NCBI GenBank assembly: GCA_020443425.1
Contig: JAGRIE010000014.1
Location: forward strand, 12,119-76,118
From: Halioglobus sp.
GTDB lineage: Bacteria; Pseudomonadota; Gammaproteobacteria; Pseudomonadales; Halieaceae
DNA length: 64,000 bases
Direction of reading: 5' to 3'
The notes under the pieces are model-generated. The model searched no databases and had not been told where the DNA came from. It saw only the letters and a list, made by a program, of their open reading frames with translations. Below are positions 55,832 through 64,000 of the stretch, one piece after another. Each line of letters starts with the position of its first letter. Positions within the stretch are counted from its first letter, which is position 1. Both the position numbers and the translations under genes were made by a program.

Positions 55832-58800
55832 ATGAAGACTTTCCGAAACGGCGGACACAACGCCATTGTGCGACCACTGGGGCTCACCTTGACGCTGGGC
55901 CTCAGTTTTTTACTGGGAGCTTGCAGCGGTGGCAGCTCCTCCTCCAACGGCAGCGGTGTGGTCAATGAGGTGGTCACGCCGACACCCACTCCCACCACGC
56001 AGACACTCGAAGGCACCGCGGCGGTTGGCGCCGCTATTGTCGACGGCATCGTCACGGCACGCTGTGCCAATGGCAACAGTTTCACCGAGGAGGTGAAGAC
56101 GGATGCCGATGGCAGTTGGTCGGGAACCATCGACAGCGCGGCGCTGCCCTGTGCGCTGCAGGTGTCCGGAGGGACGCCCGCGGTGACACTGCACAGCTAT
56201 GCCGCTGCACCGGGAACGGTGAACATCACGCCGCTGACCGATCTTGTGCTCGCGCTGGCAACGCTGCAAACGCCGCAGGACTGGTTTAATGGCTTCAGCG
56301 GTGACAGCGTCGATATCGGTACCGCCTCCGGCACCCTGTTGGACAAGTTCGCTGGCAACGGCTTTGATATCCCGTCGACAGGAAACCCGTTTACCACGCC
56401 GTTCACCACCAACGGTACCGGCTGGGACGGCCTGCTCGACCAGATCGGGCAGTCTATCGCGGATGACCCGGGCCTGGCCGATCACGCCGCTCTGGTCACT
56501 ATCGTAAAAGACGGCAATCTGGATAACCTGCCCGCCGCCCCCGCGCCTGTGACCTACACCATCAGCGGTACCGTCACCGGTGCCAGTGCCAATGTCGTCT
56601 GGGAGACCATCGTCGGCGGCCAGCTGTTGCACGATGGTGGCAGTGGCAACGGCGATGTCACCTTCAGCCCCAGTGAGGGTATTGCTCAGGGCAGCAGCTG
56701 GCGGGTTGCAATCAATACCGCGCCGGCGGGCCAGTCCTGCGTCGTCAATAACGGCAGCGGTACGCTGTCGGCGAATGTGACGAATGTTGAAATCGTCTGC
56801 ACCGAAGCTGCGAGTTTCAGCCTGTCCGGCACTATCAGCGGCGCCTCCGGCGCAGTCGGTTGGACGGCGCGCAGGAGTGGCGCCAACTACAATACCGGCA
56901 GTGACAGCAACGGGGCAGTCACGTTCACCCTGCCTGCCGGTATGGTTGAGAACAGCAACTGGCGCGTTCTCGTGACCAGCGCGCCCGCCGGCCAGACCTG
57001 CAGCGTCAGCAATGGCAGCGGCACGCTGAAAGCCGATGTTACCAACATCGCGATCCAGTGCAGCGATGAGGTGATAGTGCCGAATACGTACACGATTTCC
57101 GGTTCCATCACCGGTGCCTCCGGCCTTGTGCAGTGGCAGACCTTCAACGGCATGAATTTCCATCACGACGGCAGCAATAACAACGGCAGTGTCGCCTTTA
57201 CCACGGCTGCCGGTATGGAGGAGGGCAGCAGCTGGCGTGTCCAGGTGTCGGCAGCGCCGACCGGACAGAGCTGTGCGGTCAGCAACGGCAGCGGCACGCT
57301 GGCGGCGAACGTCAGCAATGTACTGATCAGCTGCAGCGACACCAATGTTGTCCCGGGCGATGCGATCTATGATTTCTCGTCGCTGAACCTGAAGCCGACC
57401 GTTCCCGGCATGACCCCAATCGCGCCCAGCGTCAACCCGGTCGATCCCTCACTGGATATCGCGGCGCTCTACGCCGCACTGGGAGAGCGTGAGAAGGCGC
57501 GGGTTTTTGCCCCGGCCCCCGACAACCTGCAGGTGGAGATCGACAGCTACCAGCGGGAGTACTACCTCACCCAATCTGTGTCGGCCTTGGAGTGGACGCG
57601 GCGCCTGTCGATTGACGCCGGTGCCGATGGCGAGACCAACACCGCTGACGATATCATCACCGCCTACACCGTCTATCCGGATGGCGTGCAGGGCGTGGCC
57701 TACTCCTTTACCCACCCTGGCCCGGATGCTGTCTGGTTCACCGAGGATGACGTTCCTGGCGTCCATCTCAGCGGTCGCAAAGTCTACTTCCCGGACGGTG
57801 TGGTGCTTGAGTACGAGGATGCCAGCGAGGGCGTTATCCTGGTGGTGCCCTTCCTGGATACCGGAGCCGACGGCAAGCTGTTCACGGCAGATGATGTGGT
57901 GAATTTCAGTGTCGGCTACCAGATTGCCATTCTCGATGGCGAGGGCAACCGCGGCCAGATCGTGACCTACGACGCCTACGGAGCGGACAAGCAGTGGTTC
58001 ACCGCGGATGATGTGGTCGACAACTATGTGATGGCGACAAGTGCGCTGTCGGGGCGGCAGCTGATCAGCGTGGTGTACAACAGTCCCGGTTCCGATGGCA
58101 GCTGGTTCACGGCGGACGACGTGGTAAAACAGCACACCCAGATTCAGCTGGGCAGTGACTACCTGCCGCGTTACAGCGCCGTGTACGATTCACCCAGCGG
58201 TGACAGCACCTGGTTCACCGCTGACGATCGCGTGCTCGCGTGGACTTACTACGGCTACGATGGCAAGGGTAATGCCGTACTGGTGGCCACGCATACCAAC
58301 AAGGGCAGTGACGGCGTCTGGTTTACGGCGGACGATACCGCAAGCGGACTTGTCAGCCTCAAGGATGCCAACGGGCGGTCCATCGTCGAGGCGATTATCA
58401 GCGGCTCCGGTGCGATGGGTCCCGACGGCATCTGGTTGTCCGGCGATGAAACCCTGTACGGCTACGCGTATACCGAGTTCGACGCTAACGGCAACAAGAC
58501 ACTCAACGCGCAGATCCAGAGCAAGGGCGCCGACGGCAAGTGGTTTACATCCGATGACCTGCCGACAGCGAGTTACAACTACTGGACGCGCAACTTCGAC
58601 AGCCAGGGTCGTATGACACAGCAGGTGTATTACAACCCCGCGCTGGCGCCGGCCAGCCCGGCGTTCAGCGAGGCGCAAATCGAGCGGTACACTGTGTACA
58701 ACCCCGACCTCGACATCTCTGTGTCGGTATACCGGGATCTCTATGGTTCGAGTTTTGGCAATGACGGCAAGCCCTTCACGGCCGATGATTTCATAGGCTG

Positions 58801-60682
58801 GCCCTATGTCATCACCACCGACTCGGGCAGCCTGCAGTACAACCAACCCGGCCCTGACGCCATCTGGTTCACCGATGACGATGTCAGGAGTGGCTCGATC
58901 GTGCAGCAGTTTGAGGGTAACCGCAAAACGCTGGAGCAGTATCTCGACGCCAACGGCGATGTGGTTTCCTATTCGGAGGTCTCGGAGCTGACACCCACCA
59001 GCTACCGCACGGACAGCTACCAGGTCGATGAGACGGGTTCGCCAGTGCTCACCGGCTACAATATCGTCGAGGAAGACGGCAATGGTTACCCGCGCTGGAC
59101 AACCTGGTACACGGTGGAGGATGTGATCACCAACGTGGGCTACACCGAGTACGATAGCCGCGGCAATATCACTCGCCAGAGTTCTGCCTACTCGCCGGGC
59201 AATGACGGTATCTGGGCAACAGCTGATGACTTCGGCTACTACGCGCTGCAGTTTTTCAACAGCGATAACGAACTGGTGTCGGATGCCACGGAATATCCCG
59301 GTGCGGACCGTGTCTGGGGTACGCTTGACGATTACGTCGGCCCCAGCCGGATTCTGCAGCTCGAATACGATTTCGACCAGCTGCAGGATAACGCCGGTTA
59401 TGTCGCGCGCAGCTGTGACGACCTGATGATTGTATCGAGCGGGTCGATCAATGTGCTGGTGCGCGACCAGGACGGTGAGCCACTGGCGGGCGTCATCGCG
59501 CAGCTGAACAGCCAGGGCAGTACGGTCACCACGGATGCCAGCGGCACGGCGAGCTTCAGCGGCCTCAGTGGCGCACAGGATGTTCACCTGTTCAAGGATG
59601 GCTACAACTGGGAGAGCTTCTACTGTGTGGCGCCGGGCAGCGATGTCACCGTGCAGGGCCGCCTGGCCAGCCGCAACCAGCCGGCGTTGGATTCCAAGGT
59701 GAACTTCCAGGCAACACCCGGCAACTATTACTACACGCTGCGCCTGCTGGATGACGAGGGTTACCCTGTTTCCAGCCGCTCACAATCCTCCAGCAGCGGT
59801 GCCGAGTACGGCCAGACCTACGGTTCCATCTACTTCGGCCTGCCCGCCGACTCGGAAGTCACCGGCGAGCTGTGGGCGTTACAGGTTGACCGCTACGGCG
59901 TGCTGCTCAGTGCCCAGTCGCTCGGCCAGCAGACACACACCACCATAGCCAGTAACCTGTATTCGGATTACCAGCCGATAGAGCTTGCGTTCACGGAGTC
60001 CCAGCCCATCGCGGTGGCTGCACGCGGAACGCTGGCGGCCCCGGGTGGTCAGTTCGCGACTATGGCTGTCTCACTGGGAGGCCTGTATGACCTGCCGTTC
60101 CGCTATGACGCCTCACTGGGCGGTACGTACGCGGCAGTGCCTGATGTGACGGATGTCGAACTGCCGCTAAGGGCACAACCGACAGCGTTGAAAGCCACCG
60201 GCGATAACTGGGAGGCCTGGTACCCGGGCGACTATCCAGAACTGGGAGAGGGTGTATTTGTCGCCTCTGTCATCACCGGCTTCCAGTACGAGCCGCTGGT
60301 GCAGACACAGTCTGCCCCGGGTGACCAGCCGACGATACAGTGGACGCCGGTTCGCCAGATGAAAGAGGATGCCTTCGCCACAGTGACCTCTCTGGAGTTG
60401 CGCAGCGCGGTAGGTGGCCAGGGCTATCAATCGCACTGGACGCTGCACCTGCCCGCCGGTGACAGCAGTGTACAACTGCCCCGTCTGCCGGCAGGCATCA
60501 GTGATGCCCTGCTCCCGGAGAAGGAGTACAGAATGGTGATACGGTCTCGCGCCATACCGTCACTGGACTACAGCACGGCGGTCGCGACCGAGGATCTGCA
60601 TAAGCTGAGCGCCGGTCTCGCCACCGAGCGACTCTCCACCGGGAACGACTACGACGGCGGCAACCTACTGCAGCGCCAGTAA
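55832..60682 (+). CDS. Giant (1616 aa) surface lipoprotein with Ig-like repeats and GxDGxWFTxDD repeats
   Basis: Lipobox LLGAC31, Ser/Thr/Pro linker, three ~82-aa Cys-paired repeats, 13 acidic motif repeats, C-terminal beta-sandwich domains. Confidence 0.9.
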   Translation: MKTFRNGGHNAIVRPLGLTLTLGLSFLLGACSGGSSSSNGSGVVNEVVTPTPTPTTQTLEGTAAVGAAIVDGIVTARCANGNSFTEEVKTDADGSWSGTIDSAALPCALQVSGGTPAVTLHSYAAAPGTVNITPLTDLVLALATLQTPQDWFNGFSGDSVDIGTASGTLLDKFAGNGFDIPSTGNPFTTPFTTNGTGWDGLLDQIGQSIADDPGLADHAALVTIVKDGNLDNLPAAPAPVTYTISGTVTGASANVVWETIVGGQLLHDGGSGNGDVTFSPSEGIAQGSSWRVAINTAPAGQSCVVNNGSGTLSANVTNVEIVCTEAASFSLSGTISGASGAVGWTARRSGANYNTGSDSNGAVTFTLPAGMVENSNWRVLVTSAPAGQTCSVSNGSGTLKADVTNIAIQCSDEVIVPNTYTISGSITGASGLVQWQTFNGMNFHHDGSNNNGSVAFTTAAGMEEGSSWRVQVSAAPTGQSCAVSNGSGTLAANVSNVLISCSDTNVVPGDAIYDFSSLNLKPTVPGMTPIAPSVNPVDPSLDIAALYAALGEREKARVFAPAPDNLQVEIDSYQREYYLTQSVSALEWTRRLSIDAGADGETNTADDIITAYTVYPDGVQGVAYSFTHPGPDAVWFTEDDVPGVHLSGRKVYFPDGVVLEYEDASEGVILVVPFLDTGADGKLFTADDVVNFSVGYQIAILDGEGNRGQIVTYDAYGADKQWFTADDVVDNYVMATSALSGRQLISVVYNSPGSDGSWFTADDVVKQHTQIQLGSDYLPRYSAVYDSPSGDSTWFTADDRVLAWTYYGYDGKGNAVLVATHTNKGSDGVWFTADDTASGLVSLKDANGRSIVEAIISGSGAMGPDGIWLSGDETLYGYAYTEFDANGNKTLNAQIQSKGADGKWFTSDDLPTASYNYWTRNFDSQGRMTQQVYYNPALAPASPAFSEAQIERYTVYNPDLDISVSVYRDLYGSSFGNDGKPFTADDFIGWPYVITTDSGSLQYNQPGPDAIWFTDDDVRSGSIVQQFEGNRKTLEQYLDANGDVVSYSEVSELTPTSYRTDSYQVDETGSPVLTGYNIVEEDGNGYPRWTTWYTVEDVITNVGYTEYDSRGNITRQSSAYSPGNDGIWATADDFGYYALQFFNSDNELVSDATEYPGADRVWGTLDDYVGPSRILQLEYDFDQLQDNAGYVARSCDDLMIVSSGSINVLVRDQDGEPLAGVIAQLNSQGSTVTTDASGTASFSGLSGAQDVHLFKDGYNWESFYCVAPGSDVTVQGRLASRNQPALDSKVNFQATPGNYYYTLRLLDDEGYPVSSRSQSSSSGAEYGQTYGSIYFGLPADSEVTGELWALQVDRYGVLLSAQSLGQQTHTTIASNLYSDYQPIELAFTESQPIAVAARGTLAAPGGQFATMAVSLGGLYDLPFRYDASLGGTYAAVPDVTDVELPLRAQPTALKATGDNWEAWYPGDYPELGEGVFVASVITGFQYEPLVQTQSAPGDQPTIQWTPVRQMKEDAFATVTSLELRSAVGGQGYQSHWTLHLPAGDSSVQLPRLPAGISDALLPEKEYRMVIRSRAIPSLDYSTAVATEDLHKLSAGLATERLSTGNDYDGGNLLQRQ
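56555..57334 (+). repeat. Three tandem ~82-aa Ig-like repeats
   Basis: (Y/F)(T/S)(I/L)SG...W...NG.V.F...G.....WRV....AP.GQ.C.V.NGSGTL.A.V.N..I.C at aa 242-323, 329-410 and 420-501. Confidence 0.9.
57620..59332 (+). repeat. Thirteen dispersed GxDGxWFTxDD peptide repeats
   Basis: GADGETNTADD, GPDAVWFTEDD, GADGKLFTADD, GADKQWFTADD, GSDGSWFTADD, SGDSTWFTADD, GSDGVWFTADD, GPDGIWLSGDE, GADGKWFTSDD, GNDGKPFTADD, GPDAIWFTDDD, GNDGIWATADD, GADRVWGTLDD. Confidence 0.9.
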
Positions 60683-60890: not shown

Positions 60891-61208
60891 ATGAAAAAAA
60901 TCATCGTAGAAAGCTGGGATGCGGTAATGGACAATCGCCGCAACCCCCTCAGGCACCTGGATTTGGCGTCGCAACACTACTTCATGCAGGTACTCGGATG
61001 GATGTGGAGCATGGTGTTCAGTTTGTCATTCCTGTCGATTTTCCAGTTCGGCTATATGTGGTTGGCGCACCTGCTGGTGATAGCCGGTATCTGTATGACG
61101 GTCGCGGTATTCAGGGAGGCTGAGAAGCAGGCCCTGAATGCAGTGCCGTCACCGGCCGCGTTTGGCAATTCGTCCCGCTGTGTCTGGCAGCTCGACAGGG
61201 AAGCCTGA
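60891..61208 (+). CDS. Small conserved membrane protein of marine bacteria, function unknown
   Basis: RBS AAGGGAG; W..VMD...NPLRHLD...HY.MQVLGWMWSMVFS; two hydrophobic segments. Confidence 0.8.
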   Translation: MKKIIVESWDAVMDNRRNPLRHLDLASQHYFMQVLGWMWSMVFSLSFLSIFQFGYMWLAHLLVIAGICMTVAVFREAEKQALNAVPSPAAFGNSSRCVWQLDREA

Positions 61209-61218
61209 CGGGCGCTGA

Positions 61219-61857
61219 ATGACAATGCAACTGGACAGTGATGCCCTCGCCGGGATGGCGCCGCGTACAAGAGCGGCGCTGGTAAATTCGATCAGTGGTT
61301 TCAAGTCAGCCAACCTGATTGGCACGGCTAGTGCGTCCGGCGAGACCAATCTCGCGATTATGAGCTCCGTGGTGCACCTGGGCTCCCACCCACCGCTGTT
61401 GGCGCTGGTGGTGCGCCCCGGCGGTGAGGAGAGGCACACCCTGTCGAATATACTGGCGACCCAGAGCTATACCATCAACCATGTGAACACGGCCATTATC
61501 GAAGCGGCGCACCAGACCGCCGCCAGATACCCGCAACAGGTCTCTGAATTCGACGCCACCGGCCTCACCCCTGAATGGGTGGCAGGGCTGGGCGCGCCGC
61601 TGGTGGCAGAAGCGAACGTGAAGCTGGGCATGCGGCTGCGTGAACACCAGCCACTGGCGATCAACGGTACTCACCTCGTCATCGGGGAAGTTGTTGTTGC
61701 AATCTTTCCCGAGGAGAGCTTGTTGAGCGATGGCGCTCTCGACCTCAGCGCCTGCTCAACCACAGCGCTTTCAGGGCTGGATGCCTACCACCAGGCAGTA
61801 CCCCTGAAACGGATGGCCTACGCCAAGCCTGAGCTGCCGCCGCGATTGCTGGGTTAG
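61219..61857 (+). CDS. Flavin reductase family protein (DIM6/NTAB, FMN-binding split barrel)
   Basis: RAALVNSISGFKSANLIGT...NLAIMSSVVHLGS.PPL; YTINHV; AHQTAARYP; SEFDATGLT. Confidence 0.9.
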   Translation: MTMQLDSDALAGMAPRTRAALVNSISGFKSANLIGTASASGETNLAIMSSVVHLGSHPPLLALVVRPGGEERHTLSNILATQSYTINHVNTAIIEAAHQTAARYPQQVSEFDATGLTPEWVAGLGAPLVAEANVKLGMRLREHQPLAINGTHLVIGEVVVAIFPEESLLSDGALDLSACSTTALSGLDAYHQAVPLKRMAYAKPELPPRLLG

Positions 61858-61893: not shown

Positions 61894-63978
61894 TCAGTAG
61901 AAGCGCACCAGCGTCACGGCCAGCCAGGTGGACATGAGTACCGGCCAGAACAACAGTTTCAAAGTCAGGTTGTCCCCGAACTCAAACAGCCGCCATTTGA
62001 CACCGCGCAACAGCATGGCGAGGACAATCGCCTCCAGGGTGATGAATACATACATCGAAAAATAGAACATCTCGATGTAGGCAATCTCCGGCGTCATAAT
62101 GCGGTTGCGCTCATTGACGTGTGCCAGCAACAGAATGAACAGAAAGCCCGCGGAGCTCTGTATCACATTCATGGTGGTCATGCCCGAGCGGCCTTCCTCC
62201 CTGCCCGACGATATGAACAACACGATAAACATGATCAGCGCGACTATCAGGATAGGGATGATATTGGCGATGAACGGGCTCAGCCAGATGCGCTTCATCA
62301 CCATGTCGAAGCCGAGGGCGACGTGGTTCCTGATCCGCATGTCGGCACCGAAATTGGTCTTGTAATCGATGTTCCTGAATGTGAAGAACGTTGAAATGGT
62401 ATCCGAGGAGGGGACGGAGACATTTTTGTTCAGGCCCGGTCGTACCGATGGATTGAGGATGTCATAGCTCTCAAGATCCGGCACTAGCAGGATGTGCTGG
62501 TTGAAGTCGGGGTAGAGCACCGTGATGCGGATATCGTTCTGCTCAAACGGGAACTGCTGGTAACTGAAACTCTGCTCCAGTGTTGCGCGGAACGCCCATG
62601 TGACCAGTATGTAGTCGTCATGCGGTATCTCGGAGATCAGTTCACTGCTGACGCCGCGTGTCTCCAGCGCCGAGACATCGGGAAAGTAAAAAGCCGGTGG
62701 TGCGGTGTCGTACAGCGCTTTCGGGTACTTCATCCACAGCCGGCCGATGACACTGGCCTCGAACGAACTGAGCTCATAGGATTCTATGAAAATACCCGTA
62801 GGCACCCGGTTGTAGGCGCTGCCATTGAGTTTGCGCAGCTCCCGATCGTACTGGTCGGCGTATTTGTTCATGATCGTCTGGTTGACGATGCGTTCATTGT
62901 CATTGTCGAGCAGTGAAAAGTCGGTCGCCAGGTTGAGGTACCAGACCACGACAATGTTGCCTGCTGCAATAATCGATACCGCAAATACCAGCCACCACAG
63001 CCGGCGCGCGTTAAAACGATCGACGCGCAGCGCCAGCAGCAGTACTGCCACCAGGGCCAGGCTGGCTCCGAGTGTGATGTGGATCAGCTTGCGGCGGCCC
63101 TCGTCGGAAGCACCGAGCAGATCGTCCTCGGCAAAAACCAGTACACTTTTCCAGCCAGTCGATTCCAGCTCGCGGAAGAAAAACCAGGAGTACTTGTAGG
63201 TGTAGGTGCTGTCGTAGGCGACTATTCCCTGGGGCAGCGTCCGCAGCTGCTCCACGATGGCCTCGTCCTTGCCGTCCTTGAGCTGGTAAATATTCTCCAG
63301 CAGATACTCTGAATCGGGGTGTGTCAGAATGGCGCCATCGGCGTCATAGGTAAAGCCATAGCCGGCGTCGCCGACGCTGAGTGCTTCCACGGTGCGGGTA
63401 AAATCGCTGAGTGCGATCGAGTAGTCCACCACGCCAATCACATCGCCCCTGGTATTTCTCAGCGGTGTGCTGTAATCGACCATCATCGCCCTGGCAGCTT
63501 CGCCGTAATAGGGCGCTGACCAGCCGGGGCTGCCTGTCGCCACTGTGCGGGTGTACCACGCTGCTGTTTCCCGGCTGGGTTCGGTGTAGTCGTAGCTGTC
63601 CTCGACGAACTGGAACCTGTTCAGGCTTTTGTTGAAGAAAGGGGCGTATAGCGGTTTGCCCAGAAACGCGTCCGGCTCGTAGGCCACGGTGACACCCAGC
63701 ACCAGTGGAAAGCGCTTGCTCTCCTGCCGGATGCTGCGGAGCAGGTCTTTTTCGGTGTCGATGCCGGCGATATCGGCGGCGTATTCACCCGCCCGGTCGG
63801 CAATCGCGGCGAGTTGGGCGTCCAGTGCCTCGGCGACGCGGTGGCCGGCCTCCTCACCCAGGCGGATACTCTGCTCCCTGCGTTCCTGGGTGTAGTGCAG
63901 GTAGTCCACGACAAGGTAGGTGGTGAGTGCGAGGCTGGCCAGTAGCAGCGCGGTGTACAGTAGCTTCAATTTGCGCAC
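61894..63978 (-). CDS. Cache-domain-fused pentameric ligand-gated ion channel (Pro-loop receptor) subunit
   Basis: TM, dCache_1-like domain, 2 TM, LBD with FPFE Pro-loop, then 4 TM. GTG at 63978; no in-frame stop upstream within the window, so the start is not certain. Confidence 0.85.
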   Translation of the reverse strand: MRKLKLLYTALLLASLALTTYLVVDYLHYTQERREQSIRLGEEAGHRVAEALDAQLAAIADRAGEYAADIAGIDTEKDLLRSIRQESKRFPLVLGVTVAYEPDAFLGKPLYAPFFNKSLNRFQFVEDSYDYTEPSRETAAWYTRTVATGSPGWSAPYYGEAARAMMVDYSTPLRNTRGDVIGVVDYSIALSDFTRTVEALSVGDAGYGFTYDADGAILTHPDSEYLLENIYQLKDGKDEAIVEQLRTLPQGIVAYDSTYTYKYSWFFFRELESTGWKSVLVFAEDDLLGASDEGRRKLIHITLGASLALVAVLLLALRVDRFNARRLWWLVFAVSIIAAGNIVVVWYLNLATDFSLLDNDNERIVNQTIMNKYADQYDRELRKLNGSAYNRVPTGIFIESYELSSFEASVIGRLWMKYPKALYDTAPPAFYFPDVSALETRGVSSELISEIPHDDYILVTWAFRATLEQSFSYQQFPFEQNDIRITVLYPDFNQHILLVPDLESYDILNPSVRPGLNKNVSVPSSDTISTFFTFRNIDYKTNFGADMRIRNHVALGFDMVMKRIWLSPFIANIIPILIVALIMFIVLFISSGREEGRSGMTTMNVIQSSAGFLFILLLAHVNERNRIMTPEIAYIEMFYFSMYVFITLEAIVLAMLLRGVKWRLFEFGDNLTLKLLFWPVLMSTWLAVTLVRFY

Positions 63979-64000
63979 GTTACAGCCCCGAACATCATTC

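Follow-up and report, generated by a model that had tools for sequence, protein, structure and literature searches.

Pentameric ligand-gated ion channels, or pLGICs, form the receptor class of fast synaptic transmission, and GLIC, ELIC and DeCLIC, which are prokaryotic members, have served as structural workhorses. A fusion of MCP-N plus Cache to bacterial and archaeal ligand-gated ion channels (LGICs) was predicted by Tasneem, Iyer, Jakobsson and Aravind in 2004 (PMC549065) for Methanosarcina, Cytophaga and Microbulbifer, with a proposed role in chemotaxis; the layout given for these ART-LGICs was a signal peptide, the extra domains, a ligand-binding domain and four transmembrane helices (TMs), with no mention of a TM hairpin. 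According to the literature of 2022-2025, DeCLIC from Desulfofustis is still the sole characterised pLGIC with an N-terminal domain, which consists of two jelly-roll lobes directly atop the extracellular domain (ECD) without extra TMs (PMC12664993). No mention of Cache is made in the inventory of Jaiteh 2016, and the main Cache census limits 'ion channel' outputs to the alpha2-delta type. Here we describe a gene on the minus strand of a 64,000-nucleotide stretch of Halioglobus sp. DNA (the window, contig JAGRIE010000014.1) whose product is predicted to join a periplasmic Cache sensor to a very divergent relative of the pLGICs. An earlier note, made from the letters of the window, had proposed this pairing and had stated that Cache fusions were predicted by Tasneem and colleagues, whereas the characterised bacterial channels have a different architecture. 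Both literature points held, and our literature search found no characterised Cache-pLGIC and the link between the two domains only in Tasneem 2004.

The open reading frame (ORF) is intact within the window and encodes 694 amino acids (aa) followed by a stop codon. The earlier note had suggested reading beyond position 64000 for the true start, and the GTG at 63978 proved to be already the first start codon of the open frame, which runs only nine codons farther upstream. Dozens of homologues of about 694 aa begin at the same position, in agreement with the length and start claimed for the ORF. A search of the gene region for tandem repeats found none. A hydropathy scan of the translation gave seven hydrophobic segments (aa 6-27, 298-316, 327-345, 573-591, 600-621, 639-657 and 673-693), arranged in the order TM1, dCache_1 domain, TM2-TM3 hairpin, a periplasmic domain of about 215 aa and four further TMs (M1-M4). 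The short basic loops MRKLK, RVDRFNARR and RGVKWR each lie on the side predicted to face the cytoplasm, so the Cache domain and the beta-rich domain are both predicted to be periplasmic, and the topology (N-terminus in, Cache out, hairpin, beta domain out, M1-M4) is self-consistent. This supports the three-plus-four arrangement proposed for the protein, with the sensor and the ligand-binding domain on the same side of the membrane. As judged from the translation and the structure models, the gene product is a seven-TM inner-membrane protein in which a periplasmic Cache sensor is joined through a membrane hairpin to the pLGIC relative.

Profile comparisons and structure prediction carry the pLGIC assignment. 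When the single sequence was searched against the PDB with phmmer, only Cache structures were found; with the full-length family profile GLIC was the sole non-Cache match, collinear and below threshold (E 0.05-0.5). When a core profile was built from 24 family cores, including distant Nitrospirota, Cyanobacteria, Bacteroidota, Bryobacterales and Thermomicrobiales members, it recovered GLIC from the PDB at E 1e-7 to 6e-6; the match runs collinearly between loop A and M3, and the 60 best of the 134 distinct sequences at E<=10 were all GLIC or GLIC-derived constructs. Alignment of this core profile with a reference alignment of six canonical gammaproteobacterial pLGICs by hhalign gave 96.4% probability (E 1e-9) over 196 columns, and the full-length alignment gave 91.3% over 225 columns through M4. 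The reverse search agreed, with a hidden Markov model (HMM) of the canonical pLGICs giving family members up to 34.8 bits. AlphaFold2 (AF2) models of the full-length protein (pLDDT 81.8, pTM 0.66) and of the core (pLDDT 72.5) both contain a helix, a beta-sandwich, four TM helices and a short M3-M4 loop. With the core-only model, the top 50 Foldseek matches were all pLGICs (GLIC, GLIC chimeras, DeCLIC, sTeLIC, ELIC and GABA-A; E 2e-11 to 2e-10, probability 1.0, TM-score 0.51-0.65), while the full-length model matched dCache ligand-binding domains with its N-terminal half and GLIC/GABA-A chains with its C-terminal half. Together the profiles and models show that the C-terminal half is homologous to pLGICs, with a predicted pLGIC fold. 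The family HMM, hhalign and AF2/Foldseek results thus bear out the pLGIC-type core fused to a periplasmic dCache, and the expected beta-sandwich plus four-helix bundle appears in both predicted structures.

The best sequence and fold matches are to GLIC, ELIC and sTeLIC, with which the protein shares the predicted beta-sandwich ECD, M1-M4 and the short M3-M4 loop at an identity of only about 14%. All of the motifs quoted in the earlier note (VPTGIFIESY..GRLWMKY, FSYQQFPFEQNDIRI, MKR, NIIPIL, LLLAH and TPEIAYIE) are found in the translation, and its coordinates for FPFE were exact (Table 1). The hallmarks shared with the three channels are the loop-A aromatic-x-P-D/E, the Pro-loop (F/Y)PF(D/E), the pre-M1 Arg, the M1 Pro and the M2-M3 Pro. 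Residues Y431-F-P433-D434 align to W-I-P-E in loop A of GLIC, F476-P-F-E479 to FPFD of GLIC and the canonical pLGICs, R563 and P575 to their pre-M1 Arg and M1 Pro, and T629-P630 to T249-P250 of the GLIC M2-M3 loop. The M2-M3 Pro is present in the protein's own clade, yet in only 17% of the wider family. Conservation was scored over 200 representatives of 50%-identity clusters, among which W415, P477, P500 and Y505 are invariant (100% each) and are followed by G395, G515, Y643 and P679 (99% each), R624 (98%), F614 and Y634 (95% each), R563 and P575 (93% each) and E636 (89%); position 479 is D in 85% and E in 8% (D/E 93%). Compared with GLIC, ELIC and sTeLIC, the Halioglobus protein adds three N-terminal TMs and a 260-aa Cache domain and has an M1-M2 loop about 6-10 residues longer. 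This loop is acid-rich, with the family consensus K-D/E-E-E, which may be a weak hint at cation selectivity.

In the sensor half, Pfam dCache_1 (PF02743) scored 46.2 bits against a gathering score of 45, as the earlier note's dCache-like domain and its proposed HMMER check had anticipated, and MCP-like_PDC_1 scored 56.5 bits. Sequence searches of the PDB returned dCache ligand-binding domains (9hvj, E 1e-15; 3lib, E 7e-25 with the family profile), and the full-length AF2 model matched the dCache structures 3li9 and 3lib with a Foldseek E of 1e-12 and TM-scores of 0.71-0.78. The Pfam score, the predicted double-PDC fold and the flanking TM1 and TM2 all place the domain in dCache_1. It resembles the sensors of PctA, McpX, the uracil sensor A4/9hvj and mmHK1S-Z2/Z3 in its TM-dCache-TM cassette, its fold and the retained aromatic pocket positions F114, W141 and Y157. 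In those chemoreceptors and kinases the output is an MCP, kinase or GGDEF module, whereas here it is a channel core. Sensor motifs were read from HMMER alignments using PctA Y121/R126/W128/Y129/Y144/D173 and A4 R116/T145/N178/N180/D205 (10.1101/2025.02.11.637667). The amino-acid sensor motif (dCache_1AA) is absent, with PctA R126 replaced by A139 and D173 by S188 and only the aromatic positions kept, and the uracil sensor motif (dCache_1UR) is absent as well, with A4 R116 replaced by A99, N178 by G159, N180 by A161 and D205 by S188. None of the amino-acid, uracil and amine-core motifs fits the domain, and since the amino-acid and uracil motifs are missing, the known motifs do not allow the ligand class to be predicted. 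D130, Y131, W141 and W153 are 86-94% conserved among 154 cluster representatives, suggesting that the long-form family probably shares one ligand class, which the known motifs fail to name. The aromatic and acidic character of the pocket would be compatible with a cationic amine as ligand, although this is speculation.

On balance, we find it reasonably probable that the protein is one subunit of a divergent prokaryotic pLGIC (Pro-loop receptor) with seven TM helices that is gated or tuned by its Cache domain. Five subunits would assemble round an M2-lined pore for which F614 would provide the hydrophobic gate, and the Pro-loop FPFE, pre-M1 Arg563 and M2-M3 Thr-Pro would pass ECD movement to that pore by analogy with GLIC and ELIC. 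The channel would be gated or tuned by a small periplasmic ligand that occupies the conserved pocket (D130, Y131, W141 and W153) of the membrane-distal Cache module, and the resulting ion flux would alter membrane potential or ion content. The earlier note had pictured such gating as coming from an extra sensor ring and as a means by which a putatively marine bacterium would carry out fast electrical chemosensing. The signal could pass through the TM2-TM3 hairpin and linker, through a lateral Cache-ECD contact, or through packing of TM1-3 on M1/M3/M4 in the manner of a built-in auxiliary subunit. In established structures the pLGIC ECD begins at its membrane-distal apex, so the 39 residues between TM3 and strand beta1 (the linker and the helix at 367-385) must climb the outside of the domain. 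Given the anchoring by TM1 and TM2, the Cache domains probably stand beside the channel ECD, rather than being stacked on top of it as the N-terminal domain of DeCLIC is. We more tentatively propose a distinct seven-TM channel class whose primary gating input is this membrane-anchored Cache beside the channel and not the classical inter-subunit site, which we see as possible rather than probable. If true, Cache gating beside a channel would constitute a built-in auxiliary-subunit mode unseen in characterised pLGICs, and ion channels would be added to the outputs of Cache domains.

The ECD itself leaves room for a different division of labour, in which the protein is a true pLGIC whose agonist binds at the classical inter-subunit site and the Cache domain is only modulatory or accessory (kinetics, localisation or a second input). 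The conserved loop-A, loop-B and loop-C-region motifs are kept (FYFPD; LVPDLxSY, which contains the invariant P500 and Y505; and F543-G544), the same core also occurs in Cache-less short forms that presumably work by themselves, and the DeCLIC N-terminal domain modulates gating rather than driving it (PMC12664993). We nevertheless judge this unlikely, as about 80% of the best family representatives bear the Cache cassette and its pocket is strongly conserved, which argues that Cache ligand sensing is central to the long form.

A number of observations weigh against a Cache-gated pLGIC. The Pfam models Neur_chan_LBD and Neur_chan_memb (PF02931/PF02932) gave no match at E<=10 with the protein or 52 relatives (45 aligned and 7 distant), so that the check with Neur_chan_LBD that the earlier note had put forward came out negative, and an NCBIfam scan of the same set gave no pLGIC match at E<=10. 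In this the protein differs from GLIC, ELIC and sTeLIC. Two canonical pLGICs encoded at other sites of this genome are detected by PF02931, whereas the product described here is not, and BLASTP of the C-terminal 350 aa against those two found nothing significant. The protein is therefore assigned to the pLGICs on the basis of profile-profile comparisons and its predicted fold. For the TM bundle AF2 is only moderately confident, with values of 52-69 when the core is modelled alone and 60-88 at full length. The lack of a Pfam match and of a pairwise BLAST signal, together with TM-scores of just 0.5-0.65, would suit a spurious resemblance, with an unrelated periplasmic beta domain and a four-TM anchor over-read by AF2 and Foldseek. 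We regard that as barely credible, since sequence-only profiles find pLGICs independently of structure prediction (GLIC and the hhalign match above), the matches are collinear, WxPE, FPFD, the pre-M1 R, the M1 P and the M2-M3 P align position for position, and all 50 of the top structural matches are pLGICs. Two further points against Cache gating concern assembly and context: dCache sensors normally act as dimers, which clash with five-fold symmetry, and among 43 related loci no neighbour cluster occurs in more than four, leaving no pointer to a physiological role.

The remaining points against concern M2. The canonical 9' Leu, the -1' Glu and the PAR motif were looked for in M2 and none is evident, in line with the earlier note's remark on the two selectivity motifs, and the -2'/-1' Glu ring of GLIC, ELIC and sTeLIC is missing at the aligned position; M2 carries a run of small residues at 607-611 and a near-invariant Phe. 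The register is also ambiguous, as HMMER puts F614 at GLIC 13' while the helix ends (602-626 against GLIC 221-245) put F614 at 9' and R624 at 19'; the best PDB match of the core profile is the GLIC A13'F mutant. In either register F614 lies on the conserved face, and from the alignments it is likely a candidate hydrophobic gate. ELIC has a Phe ring at 16'. An M2 that departs from canonical pores in its small-residue run, its Phe in place of the 9' Leu and its lack of a recognisable selectivity motif, combined with the silence of the Pfam channel models, could indicate a pLGIC-derived scaffold that does not conduct, in other words a receptor or structural protein whose four-helix bundle only anchors it or transduces to partners. 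To us this is distinctly improbable. M2 is still the least hydrophobic TM by hydropathy, with conserved Q/G/A607, G/A611 and F614 on one helical face, and the residues that couple gating (the Pro-loop, pre-M1 Arg, M2-M3 loop, R624 and E636) are strongly conserved, which is expected only under selection for gating. Furthermore, no conserved partner genes for a scaffold role were found across the 43 related loci.

The protein belongs to a large and widespread bacterial family. When 1.84 billion representatives of 50%-identity clusters were searched exhaustively with an HMM, the matches numbered 2,541 at E<=1e-3, of which 1,198 reached E<=1e-30. The best 150 are mostly about 650-760 aa long, with about a fifth at 290-560 aa. 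The family spans at least seven phyla, with Gammaproteobacteria, Myxococcota, Bacteroidota, Cyanobacteria, Nitrospirota, Acidobacteriota and Gemmatimonadota members, and named carriers include Haliea, Pseudomonadales, other Gammaproteobacteria, Myxococcota, Sulfomarinibacteraceae, Nitrospirota, Okeania, Dapis, Gemmatimonadota and Latescibacterota as well as Roseivirga, Cyclobacteriaceae and Reichenbachiella. The nearest named relatives are metagenome-assembled genomes (MAGs) of Haliea and Pseudomonadales. Within the order to which this genome belongs a member occurs in 13 of 251 genomes (12 of 126 genera), and none occurs in the six other genomes of its family, so the distribution is sporadic, like that of other prokaryotic pLGICs. 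Public labels read 'cache domain-containing', 'PDC sensor domain-containing' or 'hypothetical', and none names a channel; this is an annotation blind spot, with the family absent from censuses of Cache outputs.

Three N-terminal TMs were found in 128 of the 154 full-length representatives, with median spacings of 302 aa from TM1 to TM2, 29 aa from TM2 to TM3 and 60 aa from TM3 to beta1, so by these predictions the TM2-TM3 hairpin is a family trait. In short forms such as those from Bryobacterales (396 aa) and Fluviicola (378 aa) (L044 and L046), a single N-terminal anchor precedes the core, and the alignment starts at about residue 318-321, thus including TM3. Because the short forms keep an anchor matching TM3, the simplest history that the alignments suggest is that a complete TM-Cache-TM cassette was fused to a complete signal-anchored channel gene, and such a fusion of two complete membrane proteins would explain the hairpin. 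Unusually long members of the family still carry Cache, one of them with added TPR repeats. The MAG 'bacterium YP3.bin125' contains tandem short-form paralogues of about 456-461 aa without Cache (L047 5806-8129 and L049 59-2117), each laid out as a TM, a short loop, a TM-TM pair and the core; such arrays could point to heteromeric assemblies. One genome of the same order as Halioglobus (G332, contig C88, 26390-27442 and 60872-61912) has both forms of the family on one contig, with 33 kb between the long one (a frame of 750 aa) and the short one (a frame of 389 aa).

Among the described systems, this family can be compared with two precedents. Like DeCLIC, it is a prokaryotic pLGIC type with a large extra periplasmic domain in each subunit, and its core gives a comparable Foldseek match to DeCLIC. 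The jelly-roll lobes fused to the ECD without extra TMs are absent from the Halioglobus protein; unlike in DeCLIC, the accessory domain is a dCache with two TMs of its own, joined by a cytoplasmic hairpin. The other precedent is the predicted ART-LGICs. MCP-N plus Cache is what is now called dCache_1, and the ART-LGICs have the same domain pair and overlapping taxa (Bacteroidota, and gammaproteobacteria near Microbulbifer and Haliea). It may be that the Halioglobus family corresponds to the fusions predicted by Tasneem et al., the two being compared by description only; among named members, a search for Cytophaga or Microbulbifer carriers turned up only Reichenbachiella and MAGs. The concept of a Cache-pLGIC is therefore already known, while the divergent clade invisible to Pfam, the seven-TM hairpin architecture, the size of the family and the Cache-less siblings appear to be undescribed. 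On the question of how an accessory domain communicates with the pore, the approximately 1,200 clusters offer many natural dCache-channel examples and the Cache-less short forms offer matched natural controls. A direct chemical-to-electrical sensor, if this is what the protein is, would bear on membrane-potential signalling in bacteria and would provide a model channel that can be deorphanised by ligand screening.

Table 1. Positions in the window of the Halioglobus gene and the predicted features of its product.
Feature	Coordinates	Strand	Basis
Complete ORF (694 aa and stop codon), GTG start 63978	61894..63978	-	Translation; homologues of same length and start
TM1, aa 6-27, N-in signal anchor continuing into long first Cache helix	63898..63963	-	Hydropathy; AF2 helix 2-70
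Periplasmic double Cache domain dCache_1, aa ~35-290; D130, Y131, W141, W153 conserved family-wide	63109..63876	-	Pfam, PDB sequence matches, Foldseek, conservation
TM2, aa 298-316, outgoing helix of Cache cassette	63031..63087	-	AF2, hydropathy
TM3, aa 327-350, chain back to periplasm; counterpart of N-terminal anchor in Cache-less short forms	62929..63000	-	AF2, hydropathy, short-form alignments
Low-confidence linker and alpha-helix aa 367-385 leading to strand beta1	62812..62928	-	AF2
pLGIC-type extracellular beta-sandwich, aa 390-565; loop-A-like FYFPD aa 430-434, invariant W415, LVPDLxSY, pre-M1 Arg563	62284..62811	-	AF2, Foldseek, profiles, conservation
Pro-loop FPFE, aa 476-479	62542..62553	-	Alignment with FPFD (canonical pLGICs, GLIC); conservation
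M1, aa 566-589, conserved Pro575	62212..62283	-	AF2, profile alignment, conservation
M2, aa 602-626, presumed pore helix; small-residue run 607-611, near-invariant F614, H620, R624	62101..62175	-	AF2, profile alignment, hydropathy, conservation
M3, aa 633-657, preceded by M2-M3 loop T629-P630; conserved Y634, E636	62008..62082	-	AF2, profile alignment, conservation
M4, aa 671-693, after short M3-M4 loop; conserved W678-P679	61900..61968	-	AF2, conservation

The search for operon partners beyond position 64000, also raised in the earlier note, had a divided outcome. A gene whose product belongs to the ZIP family of metal transporters (PF02535, E 5e-28) is situated 105 nucleotides upstream on the same strand (L002 4202-5134 (-), approximately 64083-65015 in window numbering), no terminator-like site was found in the 105-nucleotide gap, and the two genes may be co-transcribed here. 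A conserved link to ZIP or metals was rejected, as there is no ZIP gene near any of the 43 homologous loci. The gene is best treated as standing by itself, and its context offers no clue to function. The two canonical pLGICs of the same genome are 358 and 389 aa long and pass Neur_chan_LBD (C110:60628-61224, L003; C145:175988-176575, L004), so that, with the gene described here, the organism's pLGIC-type genes number three and belong to two clades that differ greatly. Another canonical pLGIC gene, at L009 1351-2454, was excluded from the reference alignment; its TM domain reads as an Arg/Pro-rich frame, probably reflecting a frameshift or an assembly error.

On its other side the channel gene is convergent with a flavin-reductase gene. 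The stretch at 60891-61857 (+), both of whose genes converge on the channel gene, encodes a 105-aa two-TM protein without a Pfam match and then the flavin-reductase-like protein (PF01613, E 6e-19). Farther away, 55832-60682 (+) encodes a predicted lipoprotein of 1,616 aa with the lipobox-like sequence LLGACSGG. It is essentially unannotated, its sole Pfam match being a weak one to CarboxypepD_reg (E 2e-4, below the cut-off), and it contains many degenerate 'G(S/A)DG.WFT.DD.V' repeats together with three repeats of about 80 aa that end in 'NV..(I/L).C(S/T)'.

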